54,493 nucleotides of DNA from an uncultured virus (IMG/VR IMGVR_UViG_3300034095_001964) (IMGVR_UViG_3300034095_001964), one strand, 5' to 3'. Shown: positions 1,391 through 47,097, numbered from the stretch's first letter. Numbers and translations are program-made. Notes: a model not told the origin generated them from the sequence alone.

Positions 1391-3433
1391 ATGCCACTAT
1401 ACAACGTAAATGTGCCGGGCGGCGATTTAGGGACCACCATGGTTGCTACCGCGAGCGACGATATTAAAATTGCGTTTGCTTTAGATATGTTGCAAAATAC
1501 CAGCGACCTTGGCAAGCCGGTTACAACCGCGTTAACAGCAGCTCTTGTGCCGTTTGTTGATGTATCTGCTGTAGGAGAAGCGTTAAACAACGCTCCAGCG
1601 TTGGAATTTAATTTTAAGGAAGACCAGTATGTTACAAAAAACACTGCGGCTGCAAATGGTACTCTTATACATGGTAAAGCCGGGCCGCCCGCAGAATTCG
1701 CGAGAGCAAGTGGTGCTACATATAAAGATCATGCTGGTGCATTGCGCTATGCTCCTGAAAATCTTACACGCTATTCATACACATTTCAAAATGCAGTTTG
1801 GGATAGCAGCGCATATGTCACTGAAGCTGACGGTACAGCAACCGATCCATTTGGTGTTGCAAGCAATGCAACTACAATTACTCAGGTGATTGACGCGTCG
1901 ACACGCGCACGGCATATTCACGAAGCAACTGGGCCTTACACTCCAGTTATAGGTCAAACATATTGCATGAGTGTATATATCAAACAGCCCGAAACAACAC
2001 CAGCGCGATACTTTCAACTGGCATTTTGGAGTGGTGGATTTGGCGCAACCGCATTTAAAAACTTTGATATTCAAGATAAAATTGTAAGTACCAGCGAGGG
2101 TGGTAGCAGCATACTTTCATCTGGTATAGAAACATTATCGGATGGATGGATGCGCATTTACGCAACAGCGCCTGCAACGGATGTGACAGCGTCAGGTTTT
2201 CAATTGGCATTTGTAACCAGTCTAAACGCACCGCGGGCCGAGTCGTATGTCCTAGCTAGCGGTGCCAAATCGGCATACATACACGGCGCCCAAGTTGAGC
2301 GTTCACTCTATCCGCGTGCATACTTGTCTACAACCAGCAGCATAGTGTATGGTCCTCGCTTTCATTATGACTCTGTTGCCAACGAGTCATTGGGATTGAT
2401 ATTTGAAGAACAAAAAACAAACTATGCGCACCAAGTTTTTCAGAACGTTGCCGCTACAACTCTTACAGCCAATTATTCTATTGTTGCTGCACCGGATGGC
2501 TCTTATACAGCTACTAGGGTACGAAATACACCAGGCAGTGGTTCTAGAGTAGATTACCCAAGTATTGACGCTGGATTGGCATATGCACAATACACTACTT
2601 CATTTTTTATAAAATCTCTTGATACTTTATCAACAGGAGCTCTGGTGCTTGAAGCAAACGGAGGCGCGCCAATATACTTTGACATAAAAGGTAAAAGCTG
2701 GAATCATAATGGTCATACCGTGTCATATAATTTAATTACTGGCTATGAAGATTATGGAAATGGTTGGATCCGCCTGTGGGTATCATCAAAGTATGATGCA
2801 ACACATGGTTTTTTTACTCGCATTTATATTGGAGCGTATGGAGGAAGCAGCCAACAGCATGACATTTTATTTTGGGGCCCGCAGCTTGAAGCTGGCTATG
2901 TTATGACATCATATATACCCAACAGCGCAACACAATCGCTGACGCGCAGCGCGGACACCTGCGGCATAACTGGCACCAACTTTTCCAACTTCTACAATGC
3001 TGCAGCTGGTACACTTTGTGTTGACTATCGTTCAATACAATACGGCGCACGATATGCTTCTATAGTTTCATTTAATGATGCAACCGCTAATAGTAATCGT
3101 ATATACATAGGAACATATGGAGGAAATAACACCTCAAGTGGTACTGATACTGAATTGGTTATTACAACATCAGCAACAAACCAGTATGCTATAACAACTA
3201 ATACTGCTCAAGGAGTATTGCGAAAAACAGCATTTGCATATTCAAACAATACGTGCTCATCAGTTATCAACGGTCTTGCATTAACACCAAGCGCAAATTT
3301 AAGTACCAAAACACTTCCAATTGTTACGCGCATGATCATTGGGAGTTCAGGAGAAATAATGAATATCAGCGCAGTGCGATACTATAAGCAAAGGCTAAGT
3401 GTCTCTACATTGCAAACACTCACATCATTATAA
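1391..3433 (+). CDS. Head-spike-fibre-like protein with carbohydrate-binding-like repeats
   Basis: Motifs FARASGATYKD, YGPRFHYD..LGLIFEE.KTNY, GW.R, WGPQLEAG..TSYIP...TRSAD; NTSD..KPV fibre motif; late-promoter-like AATAAATA at 1378-1385. Confidence 0.7.
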   Translation: MPLYNVNVPGGDLGTTMVATASDDIKIAFALDMLQNTSDLGKPVTTALTAALVPFVDVSAVGEALNNAPALEFNFKEDQYVTKNTAAANGTLIHGKAGPPAEFARASGATYKDHAGALRYAPENLTRYSYTFQNAVWDSSAYVTEADGTATDPFGVASNATTITQVIDASTRARHIHEATGPYTPVIGQTYCMSVYIKQPETTPARYFQLAFWSGGFGATAFKNFDIQDKIVSTSEGGSSILSSGIETLSDGWMRIYATAPATDVTASGFQLAFVTSLNAPRAESYVLASGAKSAYIHGAQVERSLYPRAYLSTTSSIVYGPRFHYDSVANESLGLIFEEQKTNYAHQVFQNVAATTLTANYSIVAAPDGSYTATRVRNTPGSGSRVDYPSIDAGLAYAQYTTSFFIKSLDTLSTGALVLEANGGAPIYFDIKGKSWNHNGHTVSYNLITGYEDYGNGWIRLWVSSKYDATHGFFTRIYIGAYGGSSQQHDILFWGPQLEAGYVMTSYIPNSATQSLTRSADTCGITGTNFSNFYNAAAGTLCVDYRSIQYGARYASIVSFNDATANSNRIYIGTYGGNNTSSGTDTELVITTSATNQYAITTNTAQGVLRKTAFAYSNNTCSSVINGLALTPSANLSTKTLPIVTRMIIGSSGEIMNISAVRYYKQRLSVSTLQTLTSL

Positions 3434-5578: not shown

Positions 5579-5952
5579 TTGACTATCTATTAAAATTCCC
5601 GGACAGAGAGACTGCAAATCAATATGGATTAGCCGCAGGTTATACAAGCTTAGATGGAGAAGGCTTTGCTATTACAAGCACATCAAGCCGTGATTATGCA
5701 TTATGTGTAATTGGTGAACACCATGTGGCCACTGGAGAAACAATAACAACGGCTGATGGCATACAATATGACGAAACCGAAAGCGATGGCTGTTGCTGGG
5801 TGTTGTTTAGAGATCTTGCAGACAAGATTGCGCCAGAGTCGGCAGCTCCGTACATTGTATGGAGCAGCACCATGACAACTGGCTCTGGCGCCAATGTGGT
5901 GTCGGTGCCGCGCCCTACAGACAATAGTGTTCCCAACCGCTTTTGGGCCTAA
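5575..5952 (+). CDS. Small protein typically following spike/fibre genes
   Basis: ATGA overlap with the upstream fibre; begins IDYLLKFPD and ends VPNRFWA, a pattern recalled from fibre-adjacent phage proteins. Confidence 0.6.
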   Translation: MIDYLLKFPDRETANQYGLAAGYTSLDGEGFAITSTSSRDYALCVIGEHHVATGETITTADGIQYDETESDGCCWVLFRDLADKIAPESAAPYIVWSSTMTTGSGANVVSVPRPTDNSVPNRFWA

Positions 5953-7784: not shown

Positions 7785-8378
7785 ATGTTTGAAGCATTTG
7801 TTTATAGTTTAAGAAATGTTAAAACTAATCGGTTATACATCGGTTGGCATAAAGGTAATATAGATGATGGATATATATGTTCAAGTAAACTGGTATTAGA
7901 AGAATACCATAAAGATCCTTCTGTGTTTGAACGATATATAATTTCTCGTGGCACCACAGATCAAATGATAAAATTAGAAGTAACTATATTAAAAGCTGTT
8001 GATGCAATGCATAATAAAGATTATTATAATCAACATAATGGCAGTTGTAAATTTGTATGTAAAGGACATACTGAAATAACTAAAGCAAAAATAAGTAAAG
8101 GTAATACTGGAAATAAAAGACCAGATCTTACAAAAAGAAATTTAGAAAATAATCCAGGAAAATCAGATGAGTCTAGAAAAAAACTTAGTGAATTTCGTAA
8201 AACTAGATTAGGTATTCTTAATGAAAATTTTGGAAAAAAAGCATCAGAGGAAACTCGGCAAAAAATGTCTAAGAATAGAAAAGGCAAATGCTTAGGCGTT
8301 CCAAAATCACAAGAAGTAAAAGATAAGATGTCTGCTGCCCGTAAATTATATTGGGATAAAAAGAAAGGACTGATTTAA
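7785..8378 (+). CDS. Free-standing GIY-YIG-type (Seg-like) homing endonuclease with NUMOD3 repeats
   Basis: FVY..RN.KTNRLYIGWHKG..DDGYICSS; HTEITKAKIS, SEETRQKMS and SQEVKDKMS repeats; AT-rich compared with its flanks. Confidence 0.85.
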   Translation: MFEAFVYSLRNVKTNRLYIGWHKGNIDDGYICSSKLVLEEYHKDPSVFERYIISRGTTDQMIKLEVTILKAVDAMHNKDYYNQHNGSCKFVCKGHTEITKAKISKGNTGNKRPDLTKRNLENNPGKSDESRKKLSEFRKTRLGILNENFGKKASEETRQKMSKNRKGKCLGVPKSQEVKDKMSAARKLYWDKKKGLI

Positions 8379-20100: not shown

Positions 20101-20475
20101 ATGTATAACGTAATCAAAACAGAAGAAATGAAGGCTATTGAAGAAGTCAACGCCATGAACACTCATGCTGAAAATGCACTGAGACAACTACAATCGTTTA
20201 CACAACAAGCGTATGATGCTTTTTGGTATGGCGAAACAAGTCCAAGTCTAAAAGTAACATTACTTGGAACACAAGCAATTAAAGTGTTTACCGATTCGGC
20301 GGAAGCTCAAAGTTTTCTTGCCAGTAAAATTGATGGATATGCGCCACTAGGTGTTCCAACAGGATACAGCGTATCATTTGCGGAAGATGGCAGTGCTGAA
20401 ATTGTTTATACACCGCCAGTAATAGAGGAAACAATTGAAGAAACACAAAAAATAATAGACGAACTTAACGCCTAA
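20101..20475 (+). CDS. Fibre-associated hypothetical protein
   Basis: Follows the fibre gene; weak similarity to 1020..1382. Confidence 0.6.
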   Translation: MYNVIKTEEMKAIEEVNAMNTHAENALRQLQSFTQQAYDAFWYGETSPSLKVTLLGTQAIKVFTDSAEAQSFLASKIDGYAPLGVPTGYSVSFAEDGSAEIVYTPPVIEETIEETQKIIDELNA

Positions 20476-20503
20476 AAGAATCATTTGTATAAATAACTAC
20501 CGT

Positions 20504-21003: not shown

Positions 21004-21648
21004 ATGAAGTTAATTACCGAACATTTAGAAGATTTACACTATTTGGTTGAATCGTCTGCGGATGGCAGTAAGAACTATGTGATTGAAGGGATATTCATGC
21101 AGGCCGAACAGCTTAATCGCAATCGCCGTGTGTATCCAAAACCAATTTTAGAAAGTGCAGTTGCAAAGTATGTAACTGAATATGTTAATCGCGGACGTGC
21201 TGTGGGTGAATTGAATCACCCTGAAGGCCCTGCAATTAACCTCGATAAAGTTTCGCATCGCATTACCGCTCTCAAGTGGAATGGTAATGATGTTGTTGGA
21301 AAAGCACTCATCCTGAATACGCCAATGGGTAAAATTGTGAAAGGACTATTGGAAGGCGGATGTCAGTTGGGTGTTTCAAGCCGTGGTATGGGAACCGTTG
21401 CAAGCAAGAATGGTCAAACATTTGTCAATGACGACTATGTGTTGTCCACAGTAGATATTGTACAAGATCCAAGTGCTCCGTCCGCTTTTGTGAACGGCAT
21501 TATGGAAGGAGTAGAGTGGATCTGGGATAACGGACTACTTAAGCCGCAACAAATTGAAATGTATGAGACAGAAATTAAGAAGGCCTCTTTTGCTAAACAA
21601 GCTATAGCTCAGGAACGCATCTTCAAAGATTTCCTCTCCAAACTCTAA
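21004..21648 (+). CDS. gp21: Prohead protease gp21
   Basis: MKLITE, IEGIFMQAE..NRNRRVYP, GELNHP, GVSSRGMG, DIVQDPSAPSAFV; TATAAATA at 20983-20990. Confidence 0.97.
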   Translation: MKLITEHLEDLHYLVESSADGSKNYVIEGIFMQAEQLNRNRRVYPKPILESAVAKYVTEYVNRGRAVGELNHPEGPAINLDKVSHRITALKWNGNDVVGKALILNTPMGKIVKGLLEGGCQLGVSSRGMGTVASKNGQTFVNDDYVLSTVDIVQDPSAPSAFVNGIMEGVEWIWDNGLLKPQQIEMYETEIKKASFAKQAIAQERIFKDFLSKL

Positions 21649-27405: not shown

Positions 27406-27434
27406 ATTATAACACAAGTGAATATTCTTGTAAA
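27406..27434 (-). promoter_or_regulatory. Antisense sigma70-like promoter divergent from gp55
   Basis: Minus strand TTTACA-17-TATAAT with an extended TGn. Confidence 0.65.
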
Positions 27435-27465: not shown

Positions 27466-27493
27466 TTTACATTTCTCTACTTTTTGTTATAAT
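27466..27493 (+). promoter_or_regulatory. Early sigma70-like promoter of gp55
   Basis: TTTACA-16-TATAAT with TG; 6 nt before the ATG. Confidence 0.7.
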
Positions 27494-27499
27494 ATAGGT

Positions 27500-28114
27500 A
27501 TGGAAATTGAAAAACCAAAAAGAAAAAGCCGTGGCACTGACTATGTAAACAATGCACTATTTAGTGCAGAGGTTACAGCATATGTCAATGAAGTATCGGC
27601 ATCACTAGCAAGCGACACTGAAGCGCCAAACATTCCCAATCATATTGGTGAAGCATTTATGAAAATTTGCAACGGGTTGGCGCGCAGCCCAAGTTTCATG
27701 AATTATAGTTATCGCGAAGATATGGTTATGGATGCCGTAGAAAATTGTGTTAAAGCAATTATGAATTATGACGTCAACAAAACCACACGCACCGGCGCGC
27801 CCAACGCATTTAGCTACTTTACACAAATTGCCTACTTTGCTTTCCTGCGTCGTATAGCCAAAGAAAAGAAGCAAACCACCATAAAGCAGCTGCTTATTGA
27901 AAAAGGCGGTATTGGTATGTTTGCAGAATTTAATGATGACACACTCAATGGCGGAGAAACCATGGTTGAAAAGATTCGTCAAAAGAATGACGCGTTTTAT
28001 CATGTTGATCGCTGCACTGCAACCGCTGAAGCTTTACCCAAGAAGAAGCCAGCCGCATTTAAAAAGTCAGCCAAACCCAAGGCTGGTCCGCTTGCTGACT
28101 TTTTAAACTCTTAA
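27500..28114 (+). CDS. gp55: Late sigma factor gp55
   Basis: YVNNALF, IGEAFMKIC.GLA..PSF.NYSYREDMV.DAVENC, NAFSYFTQIAYFAFLRRIAKEKKQ. Confidence 0.96.
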   Translation: MEIEKPKRKSRGTDYVNNALFSAEVTAYVNEVSASLASDTEAPNIPNHIGEAFMKICNGLARSPSFMNYSYREDMVMDAVENCVKAIMNYDVNKTTRTGAPNAFSYFTQIAYFAFLRRIAKEKKQTTIKQLLIEKGGIGMFAEFNDDTLNGGETMVEKIRQKNDAFYHVDRCTATAEALPKKKPAAFKKSAKPKAGPLADFLNS

Positions 28115-38200: not shown

Positions 38201-39151
38201 ATGAAAAAGAATGAAAAAGAATATTTGTGGGTAGAGCGATACAGACCACAAACCATTGATGAATGCATCCTGCCAGCAGCATTAAAGAAAACCTTTAATG
38301 CCATTGTGAAGGGCGGCCAACTGCCCAACCTGCTTCTTGCAGGAACGGCTGGCCTAGGTAAGACTACAGTTGCTAAAGCATTGTGCAATCAGCTTGATCT
38401 TGATTACATCATGATTAATGGCAGTGAGGAAAGCGGTATTGATGTGCTTCGCAATAAGATTAAGCAATTTGCAAGTAGCGTATCGTTGGCCGGCGGGTAT
38501 AAAGTAGTTATTCTAGATGAGGCAGATTATTTGCAAGCAACGTCTACACAACCGGCTCTGCGCGCATTCATTGAAGAGTTTAGTAACAATTGCCGCTTTA
38601 TTCTTACGTGTAATTTTAAGAACCGAATCATCGAGCCGTTGCACAGCCGCTGCAGCGTGATTGAATTTAATACTCCTAAGAAGGAGCTGGCTGCGTTGGC
38701 TGGCGACTTTATGAAGCGCCTGTCGGCCATTCTCAAAGAAGAAGGCGTAGCCTTTCAAGACAAAACCATTGCTGAACTTATTATTCGCTATGCGCCAGAT
38801 TGGCGTCGAGTGTTAAATGAATGTCAGCGCTATAGTACTAGCGGTGAAATTCCTACGGCAATTTTGGTAGGCATGAGCGATCAAAACATTGCTGAACTCA
38901 CAACACACTTGCGTGCTAAAGATTTTAAAAGTATGCGCAGCTGGGTTGTCAACAACAGCAGTCTTGATAGCACAGTTGTATTTCGTAAGATTTATGATAG
39001 TCTATATGACACCGCTGCTCCCAACAGTATTCCAAGCGCAGTTCTTATTCTTGCTGACTATAGTTACAAGGCATGTTTTGTAAGTGACAGAGAACTTAAC
39101 ATGGTTGCTTGTATGACAGAACTCATGAGTAGCGTTGAATGGAGCAAGTAA
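38201..39151 (+). CDS. gp44: Clamp loader large subunit gp44
   Basis: LWVERYRP, GTAGLGKTT, INGSEE.GIDVLR, ILDEADYL, PLHSRC. Confidence 0.97.
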   Translation: MKKNEKEYLWVERYRPQTIDECILPAALKKTFNAIVKGGQLPNLLLAGTAGLGKTTVAKALCNQLDLDYIMINGSEESGIDVLRNKIKQFASSVSLAGGYKVVILDEADYLQATSTQPALRAFIEEFSNNCRFILTCNFKNRIIEPLHSRCSVIEFNTPKKELAALAGDFMKRLSAILKEEGVAFQDKTIAELIIRYAPDWRRVLNECQRYSTSGEIPTAILVGMSDQNIAELTTHLRAKDFKSMRSWVVNNSSLDSTVVFRKIYDSLYDTAAPNSIPSAVLILADYSYKACFVSDRELNMVACMTELMSSVEWSK

Positions 39152-39152
39152 T

Positions 39153-39626
39153 ATGGCCGCAAAGAAAAAAGAAAGTGCGCAACCAGCAGCTGCTCCAAAA
39201 TTAAGTTTCTTTTCGTTTCTCAATAGCATAAATGAAGGAAGCAATGGTAAAAGTTTATTGGCCGAGTGTAAAGCTGACAGTAGCGAAGGCGCTGCAGACG
39301 CATCTAGTGTGGAGCGTGCATATGTACCATTCATGGTCAACCGTGGTCTCTCATACTATAATGATACTGTGTTGCTTGCCAATGAAATGAATCGTTATGC
39401 TGCGCTGCCAGTCAAGATGCAATATGATTTTCTAAAGAATACCGTTCGTGCAAAGAAACGCTTTAGCAAATGGAGCAAGAAGATGGATGACGGTGCAGAT
39501 GTACAGCTGCTAATGAATCATTATTGTTATAGTGCTGAAAAAGCGCGAGCAGTATTGCCATTATTTAGCGAGAGCGCTTTGTCAAGTATACGCGCAAGCC
39601 GCGTGCAAGGCGGCCATGCAAAATAA
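39153..39626 (+). CDS. gp62: Clamp loader small subunit gp62
   Basis: YVPFMVNRGLSY..DTVLLANEMN, QYDFL.N.VR.KKRFSKW. Confidence 0.93.
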   Translation: MAAKKKESAQPAAAPKLSFFSFLNSINEGSNGKSLLAECKADSSEGAADASSVERAYVPFMVNRGLSYYNDTVLLANEMNRYAALPVKMQYDFLKNTVRAKKRFSKWSKKMDDGADVQLLMNHYCYSAEKARAVLPLFSESALSSIRASRVQGGHAK

Positions 39627-39646
39627 TATAAATAGTTTATATTACC

Positions 39647-40072
39647 ATGAATGATTTGCAAACTGTTGTTGGCTGGACACCTGCTGATATGGTGGAGGTG
39701 GATTTAAACGAGCCGGATGATTTTCTTAAAGTAAAGGAAACATTAAGCCGTATTGGCGTAAGCTCAAAAAAGGATCACAACGTGTTGTATCAAAGTTGCC
39801 ACATCCTTCACAAACAAGGCCGCTATTTTATTGTTCATTTTAAAGAATTGTTTATGCTTGATGGTAAACCGTCAACATTCACATATGATGACTATTGCCG
39901 CCGCAATACCATTATTACACTGCTTAGTGATTGGGGATTGGTGCGCGTATTAAACGCGCAAAGCATTAAGGAAGTAACAAATCTTAAGCAAATTAAGATT
40001 ATATCACATGCCGTAAAGAGCCAATGGGACCTGCGTTCAAAGTATAGTATTGGTAACATTAAAAAGAAATGA
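39647..40072 (+). CDS. regA: Translational repressor RegA
   Basis: EPDDFLKVKETLSRIGV, LYQSCHILHKQGRYFIVHFKELF.LDGK, KYSIG. Confidence 0.97.
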   Translation: MNDLQTVVGWTPADMVEVDLNEPDDFLKVKETLSRIGVSSKKDHNVLYQSCHILHKQGRYFIVHFKELFMLDGKPSTFTYDDYCRRNTIITLLSDWGLVRVLNAQSIKEVTNLKQIKIISHAVKSQWDLRSKYSIGNIKKK

Positions 40073-40305
40073 TTAAATTGTTAGCAGCGTTGTTTGCGCT
40101 TTCACAGTGCAGTTGTTATGTAAGTTGGTATGATCCATATTATGTCAGCACACCAGCTCCCGTATATGTGGCACCAAGTGCTTATAGCGCTTATGGATAT
40201 ACTCAAACCCGCCGCAATTATTATTTGCGGCCATACACCAGCTGTGCTGACACCTATTTGCGCCGCTTTTGGGTTCCTTCATACAACAGAGCGCGCTGTT
40301 ACTAA
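40069..40305 (+). CDS. Small lipoprotein-like protein
   Basis: Signal-like MIKLLAALFALSQCSC followed by a Tyr/Pro-rich tail. Confidence 0.5.
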   Translation: MIKLLAALFALSQCSCYVSWYDPYYVSTPAPVYVAPSAYSAYGYTQTRRNYYLRPYTSCADTYLRRFWVPSYNRARCY

Positions 40306-40352
40306 AGAGTCAACGGTGTATAGCTTAAATATATAAATACACATATACCATT

Positions 40353-41276
40353 ATGTGCTGCATAGCTGTTAAATATATCAAGGGGTATGGTTGGGTTGGC
40401 GCTAAGAACCGCGATCGCAACTATAAGACCGAAATTGAAATTGTCAACTCCAACAGAGAAAACATTCAACGCTTATACATCGATGATCAGACCACTCGTT
40501 GGACCGAAGGCGTCAATGAATATGGCGTAGCAATTATCAGTGCTTCTTTTAGTGTCAAAAGCGACGAAAAAGAAGGCGGTAAAGTATTGGCCAAGAAGGG
40601 TAAAAACGGCAAAAAGAAAGCAATGATATCACCGGACGGCCTTGCTATTCGCAACTCATTGCTCTGTAAGGACCCTAAGAGCGCAGCAAAGATGCTTATT
40701 GAAAAGGAACTTGCTGGTGCAACTTTTATTTTTAACAGCGACAAATGCTATCTTCTTGAAGGCGGATTTACTGTTAAGAAAGCCGATAGCACCAGTAAGA
40801 AGCCGCGCAAATATATTTACAACTTAAAGGAAATATCTAAAGACGAGAATCATTGTGTTCGCACCAATCATGGTATTGATCTTCCGCAGCTAGGGTATAG
40901 CGCAAATGCTACCGACCCAAAAATAATTGAATCAAGAAAAAGTAGCGAAGAGCGTTGGAAAATAATCAACAACTACTTGCGTGACATTGAGATTAATGAC
41001 CCAGTTGACTTTCTTGAGGCAATGAGCCAAAAGCCAAATGATGACGCATTTATGAATCCAGTGCGCATGGGTGACCCAAGCAAAGGTGACATGGTTACAA
41101 CTGGTCAGTTGCTTATCAACAGTAAAGAACGCACTCTACACTATCGCCCAATTTACAGCAGTGTTCATTTTAGTTATGACAAACTAAATGGTCAAACTGC
41201 AAAGACTTTCTTTGAAATTATTAGTTCACGCAAATTGCTTTCTTTTAAAGAATTTGCGTCTAATAAGAATAAATAG
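40353..41276 (+). CDS. Ntn-hydrolase-like protein (N-terminal Cys nucleophile)
   Basis: MC start, AKNRDR, EGVNEYGV, VRTNHG; TATAAATA at 40332-40339. Confidence 0.7.
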   Translation: MCCIAVKYIKGYGWVGAKNRDRNYKTEIEIVNSNRENIQRLYIDDQTTRWTEGVNEYGVAIISASFSVKSDEKEGGKVLAKKGKNGKKKAMISPDGLAIRNSLLCKDPKSAAKMLIEKELAGATFIFNSDKCYLLEGGFTVKKADSTSKKPRKYIYNLKEISKDENHCVRTNHGIDLPQLGYSANATDPKIIESRKSSEERWKIINNYLRDIEINDPVDFLEAMSQKPNDDAFMNPVRMGDPSKGDMVTTGQLLINSKERTLHYRPIYSSVHFSYDKLNGQTAKTFFEIISSRKLLSFKEFASNKNK

Positions 41277-41342
41277 ATTTGTGACGAGGTTGGTCGCAAA
41301 GACAAATGCCGTTTCGGGTTTGCCTACCACATAAACCATAAA

Positions 41343-41358
41343 CTTGCTTAATAAGGAG
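41343..41358 (+). promoter_or_regulatory. ROSE-like RNA thermometer hairpin over the hsp20 Shine-Dalgarno
   Basis: CUUGCUU-AAU-AAGGAG: a U(U/C)GCU motif pairing with AGGAG, leaving a bulged G. Confidence 0.55.
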
Positions 41359-41368
41359 TTATATACAC

Positions 41369-41770
41369 ATGAAAATAAATACACTAGCCCCCTGGGGCAT
41401 TGGGTTCGATCGAGTCTTTGCAGACTTTGATGTCGCGTTTAAGGAAAATGCACAGGTATACCCACCGCATAATGTTGTCAAGATTGATGACGATTCGTTC
41501 TTGGTTGAACTTGCGGTTGCGGGATTCTCTATTGAGGATCTTAGCATTGAAACTGTTGAAAATTCGCTGGTGGTTACTGGTGAACACAGTGAAGATGACA
41601 CACGGGAATATACGCACAAAGGTATCAGCACGCGCCGGTTTACGCGCAAGTTTACATTGGCCGAATATGTCAATGTTGGTGAAGCGTCACTTACTAATGG
41701 TATCTTAAGCATCGCTCTTAAGCGAGTGATTCCTGATGTGAAAAAGCCACGCACTATTGCTATCAAGTAA
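41369..41770 (+). CDS. hsp20: Small heat-shock protein Hsp20 (IbpA-like)
   Basis: IGFDRVF, YPPHNVVK, ELAVAGF, HKGISTRRFTRKFTLAE, NGILSI.L.R.IP. Confidence 0.95.
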   Translation: MKINTLAPWGIGFDRVFADFDVAFKENAQVYPPHNVVKIDDDSFLVELAVAGFSIEDLSIETVENSLVVTGEHSEDDTREYTHKGISTRRFTRKFTLAEYVNVGEASLTNGILSIALKRVIPDVKKPRTIAIK

Positions 41771-41790: not shown

Positions 41791-41837
41791 AATCGGCCCA
41801 GTTTGTAGTTTACATCTGGGCCGATTTAGTTTATAAT
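41791..41837 (+). promoter_or_regulatory. Early promoter of gp43A overlapped by an inverted repeat/terminator
   Basis: TTTACA 41809-14, 17 nt, TATAAT 41832-37; AATCGGCCCAG/CTGGGCCGATT arms enclose the -35 box. Confidence 0.7.
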
Positions 41838-41845
41838 AACATATA

Positions 41846-43354
41846 ATGATTAACGGATTCTATACTTGCATCGACCGTCACATGAATTCACTGCGCTACA
41901 GAGGCTATGATGACGAAGGTAAAAAGGTTTACAACAGTTACAAATTCCGTCCAGTAATGTATCTGGAAAGTAAAGATAAAGCTGCAAAGTGGCGTAGCCT
42001 TGAAGGGCTCCCGCTTGAGCCGATGAGATTTAACAGCATGAGCGAATGCCGCGAGTTTGCAAAAAGCTATGAAGGTGTTCCTAACTTTAAGATTTACGGA
42101 AATGACCGTCACATTCCTGCATTTATTCAGGCGGAGTTTCCCAATGAAATTGTGTATGACCGTCGTCTTATTGACATTGCATACATCGATATTGAAACTG
42201 CTTATGGTGTAATCCCAGGCGTGACAACCACAAGTTTCCCTGAGCCTAGTGAGGCGCGGCATAGCGTGCTGACCATTGCACTAAAGAGCAGCAGAGCTGA
42301 GCAATACATTGTGTGGGGACTAAAGGATTATGACAGCAGCGCTAGCAGCGTCCCTCATCTCAAAAAGGAATATCGCCAATTTGAAACCGAAGGTGAAATG
42401 CTGTTGGACTTCATTGCATGGTGGAGCGACACTCTCAATACTCCAGATGTAATTACCGGCTGGAATACCACACTCTTTGATGTTCCTTATCTTGTGAATC
42501 GTATTAGTAGAGTATTGGGCAGTGATGAAGCTAGCAAGCTGAGCCCATGGGGCAAGATTGAGCAAAAGACGGTTACTGTGAAAGGCCGTGAGAATACTCT
42601 CTATAACATCGCCGGCATTCAGCAACTTGACTATATGGACTTGTTCCAAAAGTTTACGCTCAACACCTATGGCAAGCAGGAAAGCTACAAGTTGGACAAC
42701 ATTGCTGAAGTAGTGCTTGGTCAAAACAAGTTGGACTATGGCGAAGAAGGCACGCTAGCCAAACTGTATGAGCGGGATTTTCAAAAGTTTGTGGACTACA
42801 ACATTGTCGACGTTGAACTTATTGAACGATTTGAAGCTAAGCTAGGATTGATTAACCTTGTGTTTACGCTTGCATATTTTGGTGGTGTCAACTATAGTGA
42901 TACATTGGGTACGGTTGCCATTTGGGATAGCATTATCTTCCGTCGCCTTGCATTAAAAAAGATTGCGGTTCCGCCAAGTCGCCCAAGTCAAAAGGTTAGC
43001 TACCCAGGCGGATTTGTCAAGGAGGTGGTGCCGGGCATGTATGATTGGGTTATGAGTTTTGACCTTAACAGCCTTTACCCCAACATCATTATTCAGTACA
43101 ACATGAGTCCTGAAACACTTGTGCGGCACATGCATCTACCAAGCATGAATCCTGATGTTGTATTGGCCAACAAGACGCACATCAGCCCTGAGTCTAATCT
43201 TGCGGTTGCTGCAAACGGCGCATGCTTCCGTCGTGATAAGCAAGGATTCCTTCCAGAGATTATTGAGGAGCTATACAATCGTCGCGTTGGCATTAAAGCT
43301 GAGATGATTCGCAAGAAGAAGGAAAAGGAAACGCTGCTTAGGGCAGCTGAGTAG
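41846..43354 (+). CDS. gp43: DNA polymerase gp43, N-terminal part (gp43A: exonuclease, palm motif A, first finger helix)
   Basis: DIET, GWNTTLFDVPYL, YNIVDV, SFDLNSLYP, GFLPEIIEELYNRR; ends in TAG before motif B. Confidence 0.95.
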   Translation: MINGFYTCIDRHMNSLRYRGYDDEGKKVYNSYKFRPVMYLESKDKAAKWRSLEGLPLEPMRFNSMSECREFAKSYEGVPNFKIYGNDRHIPAFIQAEFPNEIVYDRRLIDIAYIDIETAYGVIPGVTTTSFPEPSEARHSVLTIALKSSRAEQYIVWGLKDYDSSASSVPHLKKEYRQFETEGEMLLDFIAWWSDTLNTPDVITGWNTTLFDVPYLVNRISRVLGSDEASKLSPWGKIEQKTVTVKGRENTLYNIAGIQQLDYMDLFQKFTLNTYGKQESYKLDNIAEVVLGQNKLDYGEEGTLAKLYERDFQKFVDYNIVDVELIERFEAKLGLINLVFTLAYFGGVNYSDTLGTVAIWDSIIFRRLALKKIAVPPSRPSQKVSYPGGFVKEVVPGMYDWVMSFDLNSLYPNIIIQYNMSPETLVRHMHLPSMNPDVVLANKTHISPESNLAVAANGACFRRDKQGFLPEIIEELYNRRVGIKAEMIRKKKEKETLLRAAE

Positions 43355-43356
43355 AT

Positions 43357-43364
43357 TATAAATA
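43357..43364 (+). promoter_or_regulatory. Late promoter for the endonuclease between the polymerase halves
   Basis: TATAAATA 8 nt before ATG 43373. Confidence 0.75.
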
Positions 43365-43372
43365 ACATTGTT

Positions 43373-44278
43373 ATGAATAGACTTGAGAAACAGATGCAGA
43401 CGTTAACACAACACGGCAATGACTTTGTACATCGTATCAAAAATGGCGAGAATTTAAAGGACGTATGCAAATCATATGACATCATGTATAATGGCTCACT
43501 TAAAATTCTTAAAAATTTTGGATTTGATGTTAATAAGCGCTGTTATATTCCACAAAAACAAATCATAATTAGTGATGATGAATTAAACCAAGTAATTTTT
43601 GCGATTAAAACACAAGGTGAATCGCTTCGTAATTTTTCTAAAGAGCATAATTTAAATTATTCTGCTTATTATAAAGCTATTAAGAACTGTTCACCTGAGG
43701 TTCTTAATATGAAAAAATCTTTGGCTGTTCGTAAACGGCAGTCTATCGGTAAAGAAAAATTAAACTTTACACAGGAGGTAGATATTGTTAGACGATATAC
43801 AAAAGACAACGAATCTTCTTATGCAATAGCAGATGTGTACGGTGTATCGGCAAATACTATATTGCGTATTCTTCGTAAGCATGATGTCGCACTTAACCAA
43901 CAGAGCATATATTGGACAGATGATCGTCGAGCTCAAGCTAGACAATATATGCATAATAGAATGTTTTCAAATCCTAGGTATAAAGACACCAGCATCGAGA
44001 GGATGTTTATGAAATTTTGTGATGACCATAAAATTTTGTATTTTAAACAATACCAAATAGAAGATGGAACACATAAATTTGATTTTAAAATTGGTGGGAC
44101 TAATCTGCTCGTTGAGACGGATGGATCATATTGGCATTCAACAGCAGACCAGATTACCAAGGACGCTATGTTTGATCTATACGCAAGCTCTCATGGGTAT
44201 AAAGTAATGCGTTTGACTGATACTGAAATTTATGATACTAATGGTGAATGTTTTAGTAAAATTCTAGTTTACATTTAA
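43373..44278 (+). CDS. Free-standing homing endonuclease, Vsr/DUF559 (EDxHD)-type with N-terminal HTH repeats
   Basis: TSIE...FDFKI....LVETDGSYWH...KD......GYKVMRL; HTH SSYAIADVYGVSANTILRIL; AT-rich. Confidence 0.85.
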   Translation: MNRLEKQMQTLTQHGNDFVHRIKNGENLKDVCKSYDIMYNGSLKILKNFGFDVNKRCYIPQKQIIISDDELNQVIFAIKTQGESLRNFSKEHNLNYSAYYKAIKNCSPEVLNMKKSLAVRKRQSIGKEKLNFTQEVDIVRRYTKDNESSYAIADVYGVSANTILRILRKHDVALNQQSIYWTDDRRAQARQYMHNRMFSNPRYKDTSIERMFMKFCDDHKILYFKQYQIEDGTHKFDFKIGGTNLLVETDGSYWHSTADQITKDAMFDLYASSHGYKVMRLTDTEIYDTNGECFSKILVYI

Positions 44279-44296
44279 TGAATATCTTGATATAAT
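44268..44296 (+). promoter_or_regulatory. Sigma70-like promoter for gp43B, overlapping the endonuclease 3' end
   Basis: TTTACA 44268-73, 17 nt, (TGA)TATAAT 44291-96; ATG 5 nt downstream. Confidence 0.75.
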
Positions 44297-44301
44297 AATT
44301 T

Positions 44302-45635
44302 ATGAACGAAAACAAAAAAAATATAAGAGACAAACTTTCAGCACTTGATTCTGATATTGCTAGGCTTGATACCGAGCAAATGTGTATAAAGATCCTAAAC
44401 TAATTGGGCGATTATGCAGTAATGCATAATATGAATTGGGTGAATTCAGGGAAGGCTTTAACATGCTAATCCTGAGCCAAGCTTTACAATAGTAAAGAAG
44501 GTGCAACGACTATCCAGCAATGGAGTAGAAACCAAGTGGTTTCGAAGCGCCCGACGTCCGTTTGACGGATGATGATATAGTCTGAACTTTACGCGAAAGC
44601 GTAAGTAGGTTTAAACCTAGACGAAATTAACGATTTTGTTTAACATAATGAATGAACTCACTTTACGGTGCTATCGGCAACAACTATTTCCGCTACTTTG
44701 ATATTGCAGTTGCTGAAGGCATTACACTTACAGGCCAGTTGGTTATTCGCTGGGCTGAAGAGCATGCTAATGTTTGGCTTAGCAAATATCTTAAGGATGA
44801 AGGCGTTGTGGATCGAGTTATTGCAGCCGACACGGACAGTTTGTATATTCACATGAAGGATGTGATTGATCGCTTTAAGCCCAACAACCCAGTTGCATTT
44901 CTTGATGAATTTGGCAGCAAGGCCGTTGAGCCAATGCTGGCTAAAGCATTTGCAAATTTGGCCGATCTTACCAATGTTTATAAGCCAGCGATGGTTATGA
45001 AGCGGGAGGCTATTGCTGACCGTGGAATCTGGACTGCCAAGAAGCGATACATTCTTAATATTCACAACAATGAAGGCGTTCAATACACCGAGCCTAAAAT
45101 CAAGATGATGGGTATTGAAGCAATCAAGAGCAGTACTCCTAAAGTATGCCGTGGCGCATTCAAGGAAATCTTTAAGATTATTATCAATGAGGATGAAGCC
45201 AAGACACAGGCTGCAATCAAGCTGTTCCGCGCGCATTTTGCAACCATTCCAATCGAACAGGTTGCTTTTCCTCGAGGCATTACTGATATTGTAAAGTGGC
45301 GTGATAAACAAACCATCTATAAGAAAGGTACACCAATGCATGTGCGTGCTGCTCTAATGTATAATCATATGCTTAAGCAGAAAGGATTGGCTGATACATA
45401 TCAACCAATTCAAAGTGGTGACCGTATCAAATACATTCCACTTAAGATGCCTAACCCAACAGCCGAAAATGTTATTGGATTTGTGGATACACTGCCAGCT
45501 GAATTTGATATGAACAAGTATGTCAATTATGATCATCAATTCAACAAGACTTTCATTGAACCACTTGAGCTGATTCTTGATGCAATTGGCTGGAGCGCAG
45601 AACCACGTGCAACTCTTGATGATTTCTTTAACTGA
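44302..45635 (+). CDS. gp43: DNA polymerase gp43, C-terminal part (gp43B), spliced: join(44302..44396,44651..45635), 359 aa
   Basis: Exon 1 MNENKKNIRDKLSALDSDIARLDTEQMCIKI+CT joins exon 2 A+ATG AAC to restore KILMNSLYG (motif B); then ADTDS, AKKRY, MGIEAIKSSTP and the PIP-like TLDDFF. Confidence 0.88.
44397..44650 (+). ncRNA. Group I self-splicing intron (254 nt, no ORF)
   Basis: Exon ends in U; P1 CCUAA/UUGGG with U.G at the splice site; P2 AUUAUGC-AGUAAU-GCAUAAU; P3 UUGGGUG/CGCCCGA; P4 UCAGG/CCUGA; P7 GACUA (44508-12)/UAGUC (44578-82); P9 UUACGC-GAAA-GCGUAA; terminal G at 44650. Confidence 0.92.
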
Positions 45636-45646
45636 TAAATTACTAT

Positions 45647-46159
45647 ATGAATACTACAAACACACAAGACAGTCATATGCAAAGACAAGCAACACATCGA
45701 TGGGAACAAATAAAAGAAGTGTGGAGCCGCGGAAAAAATGTTGAAGAAGACGTTAGTACCGATATGCACATGATGCATCAGTATTATGGAGTCAATGACG
45801 CCGTTGAAAACTTATCACCGGCTGATTTGGCTAGCTTTATCCGATTCCGTTATGACTTTTTGCAGGAAGAAGTTAATGAAGGTAAGGCCGCAATCATTGA
45901 GCGCAACAGCGAAGAAATTGTTGACAGCCTCATTGATATTATTGTGGTTGCGGCTGGAACTCTTGACCTGCTTCAAGTTGATTTTCAAAAAGCCTGGTTT
46001 GAAGTGCTGCGTGCAAACATGACTAAGCAGGTTGGAGTTAAAGCTAGCCGGCCAAACCCACTTGGATTACCAGATTTAGTAAAAATGCCAGGCTGGACAC
46101 CTCCATCTCATGAGGACAACTATGGCCTTGTTGAAAAAGCATTTGCTGACCGCGCATGA
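45647..46159 (+). CDS. MazG/all-alpha NTP pyrophosphohydrolase-like protein
   Basis: FRYDFLQEEVNE...EEIVDSLIDIIVVA.GTLD...EVLRANMTK...PDLVK. Confidence 0.8.
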   Translation: MNTTNTQDSHMQRQATHRWEQIKEVWSRGKNVEEDVSTDMHMMHQYYGVNDAVENLSPADLASFIRFRYDFLQEEVNEGKAAIIERNSEEIVDSLIDIIVVAAGTLDLLQVDFQKAWFEVLRANMTKQVGVKASRPNPLGLPDLVKMPGWTPPSHEDNYGLVEKAFADRA

Positions 46160-47097
46160 AGTATAGATTAACCATCTTTAAAAGCATCTATGACAACAAG
46201 ACGCATCGTCAACTGACGTTTGACACCTGGGACGCATTTGAAAGTTTGTTGTATAAGCTAAGCAATCAGCCAGGCTACAAGCCCAAGAAGGACGAGCGTA
46301 AAGATGGCAGCGCTCTTATCAGCCCAGCTGTATTTCCAACTGGCACAACTCGTGCAAATGCTAATGTAAGTGTATGGGGAGGCTGGGCCGCACTTGATGT
46401 TGACACTTATGAAGGACATTGGATGGATGCTATAAGCGTGTTTAGAGATGTACGATATGTGTGTTATAGCTCTGCCAGTTCAACCGACGAACATCCTAAG
46501 TTTAGAGTGGTGCTCCCGCTAACATGTGAAGTACCGGCTGATCGTATACGTCACCTGTGGTATGCGCTAAATAAAGAGTACAATGGTTTAGGAGATCCTC
46601 AAACAAAAGATCTTAGCCGCATGTATTATGTGCCGGCTGATTACCCAGGCAGCAAAAAGTTTATCTTTAGCAACAGCGATGCGCCATTCATTGATCCATA
46701 TGAGATTATGGCAAAGCATCCATGGAGCGGAAATGTTGCGCGCTTGTCGTTGTCTGATAAACTACCTGAGGAAATGCGTCGTAAGATTGAGCAGTACCGC
46801 AAAGAAAAGCTCAACAACACCAGTTACCGTTGGTCGTCATACTCCGATTGCCCTTTTGTAAACAAGCGAATGGTTGCGGAATATCGTACAATACAAGAAG
46901 GCGGCTGGTATCACATGATGTATAAAATTATGATGAGTATTGCCTCAAGTGCAATGAAACGTGGTTATCCTATTACACCATCTGAAGTTGCCAAGCTGTG
47001 TAAAGATATAGACAATGATACTGGCGGCTGGTATAAGAACCGGCCTATGGAAAATGAAGCTAGCCGTGCTATTGACTTTGCCGTACGAAGTTTATAA
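46156..47097 (+). CDS. AEP/PrimPol-like primase domain protein
   Basis: WAALDVD, YSSASS..HPKFRVVLPL, DPQTKDLSRMYYVP. Confidence 0.7.
   Translation: MKYRLTIFKSIYDNKTHRQLTFDTWDAFESLLYKLSNQPGYKPKKDERKDGSALISPAVFPTGTTRANANVSVWGGWAALDVDTYEGHWMDAISVFRDVRYVCYSSASSTDEHPKFRVVLPLTCEVPADRIRHLWYALNKEYNGLGDPQTKDLSRMYYVPADYPGSKKFIFSNSDAPFIDPYEIMAKHPWSGNVARLSLSDKLPEEMRRKIEQYRKEKLNNTSYRWSSYSDCPFVNKRMVAEYRTIQEGGWYHMMYKIMMSIASSAMKRGYPITPSEVAKLCKDIDNDTGGWYKNRPMENEASRAIDFAVRSL

Follow-up and report, generated by a model that had tools for sequence, protein, structure and literature searches.

How an essential gene that has been interrupted twice could still yield a complete enzyme, and what interrupted it, are the questions raised by the gene 43 locus (41846-45635, + strand) of IMGVR_UViG_3300034095_001964, a 54,493-nucleotide (nt) stretch of DNA from an uncultured virus that is referred to here, over its whole length, as the window. 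The product of gene 43 in T4-like phages, gp43, is a family B DNA polymerase. In the window its coding sequence is divided between two genes, 43A and 43B, which are separated by a free-standing homing endonuclease gene, and 43B is in turn interrupted by a group I intron within polymerase motif B. We conclude, with a probability of roughly 0.8, that a mobile cassette has split gene 43 into two proteins, that an intron resides in motif B, and that the arrangement spreads by homing with co-conversion of the intron. Splicing, endonuclease activity, promoter use and the activity of a two-chain enzyme are predictions from the sequence. The arrangement itself is known, and the value added by this analysis is comparative depth, not a new principle.

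Organization of the split gene 43

The locus comprises five consecutive features on the + strand: open reading frames (ORFs) of 502 residues, 301 residues and 33 codons, an intron stretch, and an ORF of 327 residues that runs from 44652 to a stop codon at 45633-45635 (the features are placed in Table 1). Between the 33-codon and the 327-residue ORFs lie ~250 nt that contain stops in all frames. The first product, gp43A, matches the Pfam families DNA_pol_B_exo1 (3.2e-17) and DNA_pol_B (2.1e-17), and the last ORF encodes the polymerase domain of family B. Over residues 1-497, gp43A shares 97-98% identity with the N-terminal part of the gp43 that four related IMG/VR loci (L003, L004, L005 and L007) encode without interruption, and 43B exon 2 is 90-95% identical to close relatives. 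The C-terminal end of gp43A reads ...KKKEKETLLRAAE and is followed by a TAG codon at 43352-43354. When the intact homologue L003 is aligned with RB69 DNA polymerase, two aligned blocks are obtained, the first ending at residue 500 and the second resuming at 543; by this alignment, the break in gene 43 falls at the tip of the fingers hairpin, between RB69 residues ~500 and 543. An earlier note on this DNA had proposed a split at the fingers tip, with which the RB69 alignment agrees, and every coordinate and length that it gave for the end of 43A, the 301-residue endonuclease, the second promoter (44268-44296) and the 43B start (ATG at 44302) was borne out.

Table 1. Positions of the features of the gene 43 locus in the window.
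Feature	Position	Strand	Basis or context
Early-type promoter-like motif TTTACA-17-TATAAT	41809..41837	+	8 nt 5' of gp43A ATG
Gene 43A: N-terminal, exonuclease and palm (motif A) domains and first finger helix; 502 residues	41846..43354	+	Pfam, tblastn
LLRAAE tail of 43A with its TAG stop, carried by the cassette; left boundary of the inserted block	43334..43354	+	Alignment with intact relatives
T4-type late-promoter-like motif TATAAATA	43357..43364	+	8 nt 5' of endonuclease ATG
Free-standing homing endonuclease gene, EDxHD/Vsr-like; 301 residues	43373..44278	+	Pfam, match to PDB 3r3p
Early-type promoter-like motif TTTACA-17-TATAAT, starting within the 3' end of the endonuclease gene	44268..44296	+	5 nt 5' of 43B ATG
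Gene 43B exon 1, 95 nt: new start, diverged head, second finger helix to K-I-L of motif B	44302..44396	+	
Group I intron without an ORF, 254 nt, inside the Leu codon of K-I-L/M-N-S-L-Y-G	44397..44650	+	RF00028
Gene 43B exon 2: remaining motif B, palm motif C (DTDS), thumb	44651..45635	+	Pfam DNA_pol_B

The 33-codon ORF that opens at ATG 44302 reads MNENKKNIRDKLSALDSDIARLDTEQMCIKILN before its stop codon if the transcript is left unspliced, and its frame in exon 1 is the one in which intact relatives encode their conserved ...RL(D/E)TEQMCIKIL. The intron was recognized by its match to RF00028 over 44387-44605, which begins at model position 1 and reaches 104.2 bits against a gathering threshold of 50 (E 5.6e-27); no other Rfam family attains its gathering level anywhere in the 54.5-kb window. 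In the P1 helix, exon CCU pairs with GGG and a U.G pair is positioned at the 5' splice site (44396); the last intron base is a G at 44650. The predicted fold has a z-score of -4.8, and compensatory changes are seen at 26 of its 74 pairs, a count that draws on only 3 homologous introns. Joining 44396 to 44651 in silico gives a gp43B of 359 residues that reads ...EQMCIKILMNSLYGAIGN..., the same residues being uninterrupted in relatives, and its motif B segment, K-I-L/M-N-S-L-Y-G (the slash marks the intron), aligns with ...RKLLINSLYG of RB69. These computed products match the halves of 502 + 359 residues that had been claimed for this locus, and the frame shared with intact relatives fits the earlier proposal that the second finger helix encoded from ATG 44302 would be joined to motif B only after splicing. 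By these frames, removal of the intron is needed to rebuild motif B and to make gp43B.

The locus is no misassembly, because independent lake metagenome contigs bridge every junction. Four lake-water metagenome runs (X5, X9, X10 and X12) were compared with the window; X5, X9 and X10 belong to different coded studies, and none of these three is flagged as its possible source. Over 43300-44700, the interval for which the earlier note had considered a misassembly, contigs of these runs bridge the junctions. Contigs of X5, X9 and X10 span the 43A/endonuclease junction and the endonuclease/43B/5' splice-site junction with 0-1 differences each, and the 3' splice site is bridged by contigs of X5 and X9, again with 0-1 differences. 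The X5 contigs, covering 43196-43736, 43728-44512 and 44513-44995, have zero differences from the window. A strain in X12 that is ~95% identical carries 43492-45199 within one 4,003-nt contig, in the same order and with 74 substitutions and no gaps. The 43A tail is unconserved, because X12 has a 1-nt deletion at 43340 within it. Two IMG/VR contigs (L001 and L002) are identical to the window across the locus. Among the contigs of the four metagenome runs, none joins straight across the endonuclease gene or the intron, although contigs cannot show absence.

The inserted cassette and its endonuclease

DNA alignment delimits a foreign block that extends from just after ...GGAAAC (~43334) to ~44364 and holds the 43A tail, its stop codon, the endonuclease gene, a promoter motif, the 43B ATG and ~20 diverged 43B codons. 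Intact close relatives read ...KEKET/INSK(T/N)DARKYKSIDIEVERLETEQMCIKILMNSLYG across the site (here the slash marks the point of insertion). The earlier note had held that the inserted element brought with it the promoter and start of 43B, and three observations uphold this: intact relatives run KEKET/INSK without the block; three distant loci (L085-L087) likewise have TTTACA-17-TATAAT embedded near the end of their endonuclease gene; and in a pair of related loci (L008 and L006) that carry a sister cassette, distinct from the window's own, the block including tail and head is far better conserved than its surroundings. In 60-nt windows along this pair, identity is 93-100% throughout the region that begins at the 43A tail and extends to around 43B codon 15, versus a mean of ~84% outside it. 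Because this low-divergence tract spans the 43A tail through the 43B head, the new protein ends travel with the endonuclease. The synonymous divergence (pS) between L008 and L006 is 0.092 in the endonuclease gene, compared with 0.583 in 43A and 0.485 in 43B, which suggests a recent transfer of the sister cassette. Purifying selection acts on both polymerase halves, the ratio of nonsynonymous to synonymous divergence (pN/pS) for the same pair being 0.066 for 43A and 0.113 for 43B. The endonuclease behaves as a mobile element does: it is both present and absent among relatives that are at least 95% identical, and the sister cassette has diverged less than the DNA on either side. Within the clade of the window, at least two invasions of the split site have taken place, the endonucleases concerned being 35% identical.

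Several lines of evidence assign the 301-residue protein to the EDxHD (Vsr-like) homing endonucleases. Its residues 202-299 match Pfam DUF559 (PF04480) with 26.6 bits against a cut-off of 20.6, and residues 206-289 match PDB 3r3p, the catalytic domain of I-Bth0305I (E 1.6e-5). Within an alignment of 18 endonuclease homologues, E248, D250, H255 and D264 are invariant; judged from the 3r3p alignment and the text of PMC3239194, these would be the published EDxHD catalytic residues. In the N-terminal region only sub-threshold Pfam matches are found (Mga, 19.4 vs 21.1; HTH_38, 16.5 vs 27), and residues 112-197 have PHROG matches annotated 'DNA binding protein'. No GIY-YIG match was found in the window endonuclease by Pfam or structure searches. 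I-Bth0305I is the prototype EDxHD homing endonuclease, in which an N-terminal NUMOD/helix-turn-helix region precedes a C-terminal nuclease (PMC3239194). The likeness of the window protein to this prototype consists of the C-terminal catalytic domain match and the retained E/D/H/D residues, the helix-turn-helix-like matches in its N-terminal region staying below the Pfam thresholds; the two differ in that I-Bth0305I sits inside a recA intron (PMC3239194), whereas the window endonuclease is free-standing.

A word-index protein search with the endonuclease as query returned only 2 proteins, but a profile search of 1.84 billion representative proteins reached further, with 6,009 matches at E<=0.001, of which 374 were also within E<=1e-10 and 40 within E<=1e-30. 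In tblastn searches of cultured phages, the window endonuclease had no match, and the endonuclease of the distant relative L086 had partial matches only, all outside gene 43. In phage-like DNA from aquatic samples, free-standing members of the EDxHD family are known to interrupt genes of DNA metabolism, and most of the 'fractured genes' of ocean metagenomes reported by Dassa et al. 2009 are rejoined by split inteins (PMC2677866). The window differs from those fractured genes, as the 43B head aligns to polymerase sequence and no split-intein halves were found at the new protein ends, where the 43A tail is 6 residues long and no Pfam intein domain is present. A Vsr-like endonuclease that splits gp43, or that is paired with a separate intron, is not described in the available text of PMC3239194 or PMC2677866, and no prior description of an EDxHD-split gp43 was found in the literature searched, subscription papers and supplements aside.

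States of the locus among relatives

Two surveys of IMG/VR place the window among loci in which gene 43 is found in different states. In the first, a scan with exon 2 kept 80 distinct gp43B-related loci, whose states were determined by tblastn (L081 is the same contig as L002). The clade whose gp43A is at least 95% identical to the window's includes four intact loci (L003, L004, L005 and L007) and the two that are identical to the window (L001 and L002). In the two remaining members of the clade, L006 and L008 (95-98% identical), gene 43 has no intron and is broken at the window's split point, but the endonuclease there has only 35-36% identity to that of the window. Gene 43 of L034 (58% identical) is split at the same tip, and the gap between its halves holds, in place of an endonuclease, a 69-residue ORF of no known family (5641-5850). 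This small ORF has a hydrophobic stretch and no PHROG match, and the 43A tail of L034 resembles those of endonuclease-bearing loci. L027 was considered as another interrupted gene 43 and rejected, its frame shift lying inside 43A only; L039 is without the 43A region. The remaining 69 of the 80 loci are continuous across the split site.

For the second survey, IMG/VR was searched with the alignment of 18 endonuclease homologues; 80 loci were kept and then searched by tblastn with the polymerase halves. The best 21 of these 80 (L083-L103), whose endonucleases are 24-100% identical to the window's, all have the order gp43A-like, endonuclease, gp43B-like, and their gp43 is 34-100% identical to the window's. 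The window endonuclease belongs to a widespread, gp43-specific lineage. Polymerases that are 40-43% identical carry endonucleases 41-43% identical to the window's, a higher value than the 35-36% of L006 and L008, and still more distant polymerases are also accompanied by such endonucleases, which in L105 and L118 lie on the opposite strand. The 43A tails of these 21 loci share the motif E-x-x-[KR]-R-[GK], followed by a few residues; the LLRAAE tail of the window is an exception, and the motif occurs in none of the 59 distinct finger-tip sequences of intact relatives. In four of the loci (L089, L090, L091, which is L008, and L092, which is L006) the 43B start overlaps the stop codon of the endonuclease gene.

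Three loci of this survey, L085-L087, combine the features of the window in a much more distant polymerase: their gp43 is 40-53% identical and their endonuclease 41% identical to the window's, the promoter motif is present, and a homologous intron of 255 nt occupies exactly the site it has in the window. In L086 the order is 43A tail, a 51-residue ORF, the late-promoter-like motif TATAAATA with a hairpin, the endonuclease gene, TTTACA-17-TATAAT inside the 3' end of that gene, the 43B start with a Shine-Dalgarno-like sequence (GAGGAA), and the intron at exactly the codon position it has in the window. Over aligned positions the introns of the window and L086 are 83.5% identical, as compared with 71-76% for the flanking coding DNA. 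A search of 18 loci with Rfam models detected a group I intron in L086 (which stands for L085-L087), L105 and L116, and in none of the other 15; among these are 14 loci with the order 43A-endonuclease-43B in which no Rfam intron was found (L088-L090, L093-L095, L097-L100, L102, L103, L006 and L008). For L096 and L101 the absence of the intron was judged by tblastn spacing only.

The intron is also found apart from the endonuclease. A scan with the intron core identified four loci (L165, L166, L168 and L174) in which gene 43 is split and a homologous intron occupies the same site, with a gap of ~200 nt between the halves and no endonuclease. Motif B introns occur at three positions in all: that of the window and L086, that of phage 25, and that of L105 and L116 (after ...LNS). 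In a blastn search of cultured phages with the window intron, only core similarity was seen (69-77%).

Two kinds of side observation concern these loci. The gp43A-like part of L085-L087 has a further insertion of ~770-840 nt (~1663-2499), at a place corresponding to residues ~250-307 of window gp43A, and that of L094 has one of the same size range (~2255-3022), corresponding to residues 431-453; no Rfam intron was detected in these extra insertions, which may be further endonuclease, intein or other insertions. The 35-nt core of the intron, with at most one base changed, is also present in L171, L172, L173 and L176, and L171 and L172 each have a second intron-like match ~950 nt away. Because the core is found in these contigs, which are without gp43 similarity, the intron lineage is resident in other genes as well.

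Comparison with described systems

The combination of a split gp43, a free-standing endonuclease and an intron had been thought new in the earlier note, and this did not stand: the record NC_008208 of Aeromonas phage 25 annotates, in order, 43A, a homing endonuclease and a 43B 'split by group IA2 intron'. In both phages gene 43 is split near the fingers tip, with a first half of 498 residues in phage 25 and 502 in the window, a free-standing endonuclease lies between the halves, and an endonuclease-less group I intron interrupts motif B of 43B. The nuclease families differ, the window endonuclease being EDxHD/Vsr-like and that of phage 25 a segD-like enzyme with a GIY-YIG-like N-terminus. The introns differ too: that of phage 25 follows ...NSLYGAL and is matched by Rfam over 329 nt (20159-20487), whereas the 254-nt intron of the window follows ...KIL, ~7 codons upstream. 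Megablast finds no DNA-level similarity of the locus to phage 25, and the window phage is a freshwater, Kyanoviridae-like virus, as opposed to a phage of Aeromonas. Taken on its sequence, the locus repeats the architecture of phage 25, but with an endonuclease of the EDxHD type and with the intron at another site. The phage 25 locus is reviewed in PMC2988022 and PMC2993671, both of which cite Petrov, Ratnayaka & Karam 2010 (J Mol Biol 395:457); these reviews describe its endonuclease as segD-like, PMC2993671 states that the intron is without an endonuclease of its own and is predicted to use the free-standing one for mobility, and PMC2988022 reports that the two gp43 halves co-purify with polymerase activity. 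As a separate observation, the gp43A tail of phage 25 (L082, ~21460-21490), ...SRGIKTDH, resembles that of the EDxHD-split L103, ...ERRGIKTK, so the split ends may predate the endonuclease now resident between them, or may have been exchanged without it.

Other systems share parts of this organization. The F-CphI endonuclease and psbA intron of cyanophage S-PM2 reportedly constitute a case of collaborative homing. The nrdA gene of Aeh1 is split by mobE, and T4 mobE promotes trans-homing of the nrdB intron, a process termed 'collaborative homing' (PMC2988022). As in Aeh1 nrdA/mobE, the window has a free-standing endonuclease inserted in an essential gene to give two polypeptides, which here would likewise reassemble, and as in T4 mobE/nrdB, a free-standing endonuclease lies beside an endonuclease-less intron that it could mobilize; unlike these cases, the window involves another host gene and another endonuclease family, and gene splitting and partner intron are found in one locus. 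A laboratory counterpart of the split is an engineered Pfu DNA polymerase that remains functional when divided near the finger tip by termination/reinitiation (PMC3061061); Pfu polymerase is of family B like the window's, but this split is a laboratory product in an archaeal enzyme and involves no mobile element.

Proposed mechanism and alternative explanations

We propose that the cassette replaced the tip of the fingers hairpin with a 6-codon tail and stop, the motif TATAAATA, the endonuclease gene, an early-type promoter motif, a new ATG and ~20 diverged codons. The polymerase would then be made as gp43A (502 residues) and gp43B (359 residues), which would reassemble through their antiparallel finger helices and the shared palm. 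43B would be transcribed from its own promoter, with no need for readthrough from the endonuclease gene. When a mixed infection has reached its late phase, the endonuclease would cut gene 43 alleles that are free of it, and repair from the donor would copy the cassette and co-convert its flanks, including the intron that lies 118 nt 3' of the endonuclease stop codon. Spread of this kind would amount to the trans or 'collaborative' homing reported for phage 25.

A number of observations weigh against this proposal. The endonuclease occurs without the intron in 16 of the 21 gp43 endonuclease loci (for two of them by spacing, as above), the intron being limited to the window type and L085-L087 (5 loci in 2 lineages), and the intron persists without the endonuclease in the four loci L165, L166, L168 and L174; endonuclease and intron may simply be neighbours. 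When the sequence at the intron insertion site was compared among endonuclease-free, endonuclease-only and endonuclease-plus-intron alleles, no clear sign of a cut site was seen. The candidate 43B promoter would give only a leaderless or nearly leaderless mRNA, and only 5 of the 21 endonuclease loci have the promoter motif ahead of 43B, four others having the overlap of start and stop codons. A hairpin at the 43A tail that might act as a regulator like the hairpin of phage 25 is no more stable than shuffled sequences (z -0.77). Finally, the two-chain complex described below was predicted for the halves of the relative L008, not for the spliced protein of the window.

The first of these points are also what speaks for an account in which endonuclease and intron are independent neighbours: the endonuclease would cut at or beside the fingers-tip insertion site, so that the cassette itself destroys its target, and an older, unrelated intron would sometimes be co-converted without any role in protection or spread. 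The three positions of motif B introns add to this, as they suggest a general intron hot spot. On the other side, the endonuclease, promoter and intron lineages recur together, at the same site, in two gp43 lineages that are only 40-53% identical, which would favour a partnership of endonuclease and intron, and the free-standing endonuclease of phage 25 is predicted to mobilize the intron of that phage (PMC2993671). We consider independence possible but unlikely; it departs from the proposed homing with co-conversion in two respects only, the place of the cut and the extent of dependence. A different view of the same DNA would be one large intron that extends from the 43A stop to 44650 and includes the endonuclease ORF, with a single polypeptide spliced from ~43350 to 44651. 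Phage group I introns often carry an endonuclease ORF in a loop, I-Bth0305I being intron-encoded (PMC3239194), and the endonuclease gene and ribozyme core are only ~120 nt apart; such a splice, however, would cost the protein its second finger helix, the conserved ...RLETEQMCIKIL and the lysine of motif B included, a stretch that is continuous in intact relatives. Exon 1 (44302-44396) moreover is in frame with conserved sequence, P1 places its U.G pair at 44396, the Rfam match begins at 44387 with model position 1, and there are relatives with the endonuclease and split but no intron and others with the intron and split but no endonuclease, all of which makes the large intron very improbable.

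Two further explanations deny that the locus works, or exists, as described. An essential gene interrupted twice could look like a decaying one, in which case the split polymerase would be a pseudogene and the phage would rely on another polymerase. Both halves, however, are similar to intact gp43 over their full length and retain motifs A, B and C, the low pN/pS values of the sister pair apply to 43A and 43B alike, the layout is gap-free in the ~95% identical strain and present in several independent runs, and the split enzyme of phage 25 is reported to be active (PMC2988022); we give decay hardly any credence. The window being metagenomic, and samples of this kind also containing related strains with other locus states, the possibility that reads of different phages had been joined into a chimera was also weighed. 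The junction-spanning contigs of X5, X9 and X10, the collinear 4,003-nt contig of X12 and the two IMG/VR contigs that are identical across the locus make this the most remote of the explanations.

To the proposal of a mobile cassette that spreads by homing a broader one can be attached, which we hold tentatively and regard as rather more doubtful than probable: that an EDxHD lineage is specialized on the fingers tip of T4-type polymerases, travels through polymerases 34-100% identical as a self-contained cassette that supplies both new protein ends, a late promoter of its own and, in some versions, a promoter for the downstream half, has invaded the clade that is at least 95% identical at least twice, and has formed a stable partnership with an endonuclease-less motif B intron in two lineages, the site of this intron being, on that view, where the endonuclease would cleave. 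If true, 'collaborative homing' would be a recurrent, convergently evolved composite element, with a GIY-YIG enzyme in phage 25 and an EDxHD enzyme here, and not a single curiosity. Recurrence of the three-part layout with another nuclease family suggests that such elements have converged on two preferred landing sites, the fingers tip and motif B. The contigs form a natural series of intact gene, gene split by the endonuclease, gene with endonuclease and intron, and, in other lineages, a split kept after the endonuclease is gone; this series can be viewed as the stages through which a homing endonuclease passes when its host gene is essential, and in it the split looks hard to reverse.

A proposed two-chain polymerase

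The assembly of the halves was modeled with the unaltered proteins of L008, which are 98% (43A) and 92% (43B) identical to the window's. The gp43A + gp43B complex scored 0.83 in all three runs, compared with 0.30 for the best of 3 controls; this mark was reached by 51 of 78 solved complexes and by 2 of 108 mismatched pairs. At least 96% of the contacts agree among the three runs, and the predicted local distance difference test score (pLDDT) of the partner is 88. The predicted interface involves residues 463-504 of 43A, in a roughly heptad pattern, and residues 1-34 of 43B, that is, the two finger helices would pack against one another out to their cassette-borne ends. A pass in this prediction is expected from likeness to the solved single-chain polymerases of the RB69 type, and it indicates that likeness, not binding. 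The earlier suggestion that a basic and an acidic helix form a pair as an adaptation to the split finds no support, as the 43B head has 5 basic and 6 acidic residues and the corresponding stretch of intact relatives has the same balance. For enzymology, the cassettes mark a tolerated break point and provide natural terminal extensions for two-chain family B polymerases.

Expression signals

The two promoter-like motifs of the locus recur in the window. TTTACA-N16-18-TATAAT has 7 exact matches against 0.07 expected, and three of the five copies on the + strand end 5-8 nt before an ATG (at 27500, at 41846 for gp43A and at 44302 for 43B, where the -10 hexamer of the 44268-44296 copy ends 5 nt before the start codon). 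The motif TATAAATA, which we take to be the T4 late-promoter consensus, has 12 matches, all on the + strand, against 3.5 expected, and 10 of the 12 are located 5-13 nt before the ATG of an ORF, the endonuclease gene included; it also precedes the endonuclease gene in L008/L006 and in L085-L087. An early-type promoter for 43B and a late-type promoter for the endonuclease are plausible assignments. A late promoter just upstream is the arrangement of T4 endonuclease genes (PMC2988022). Ahead of ORFs, Shine-Dalgarno-like 4-mers are just as frequent as in the background (7 of 53 ORFs, background rate 12.9%). The picture suggested is of a phage with start-proximal promoters and little use of Shine-Dalgarno sequences, and because promoter-like motifs lie 5-13 nt before starts and Shine-Dalgarno sequences are at background, many of its mRNAs may be leaderless or nearly so.

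Further copies of both motifs were noted elsewhere in the window. Sites of TATAAATA include 3429, 6157, 20488, 39627, 40332, 43357 and 47093, and the early-type motif also occurs at 27466-27493. Two matches to TTTACA-N17-TATAAT are on the - strand (8023-8051 and 27406-27434), opposite all long ORFs, and the second is positioned back to back with the + strand copy at 27466-27493; these copies may be divergent or antisense promoters.

Genomic setting

The window derives from a freshwater T4-like phage whose nearest sequenced genome is in the Kyanoviridae. When the locus was compared with cultured phages by megablast, only stretches of 59-132 nt were matched, at 76-85% identity, and these fall in cyanophage polymerase genes. 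The regions on either side of the locus (38201-41770 and 45647-47097) contain, in this order, a gp44-like clamp loader, a RegA-like translational repressor, a 307-residue ORF of no family and Hsp20 before gene 43, and a MazG/PRA-PH-like ORF after it, and this gene order matches that around gene 43 in Phage C48C1 (Kyanoviridae).

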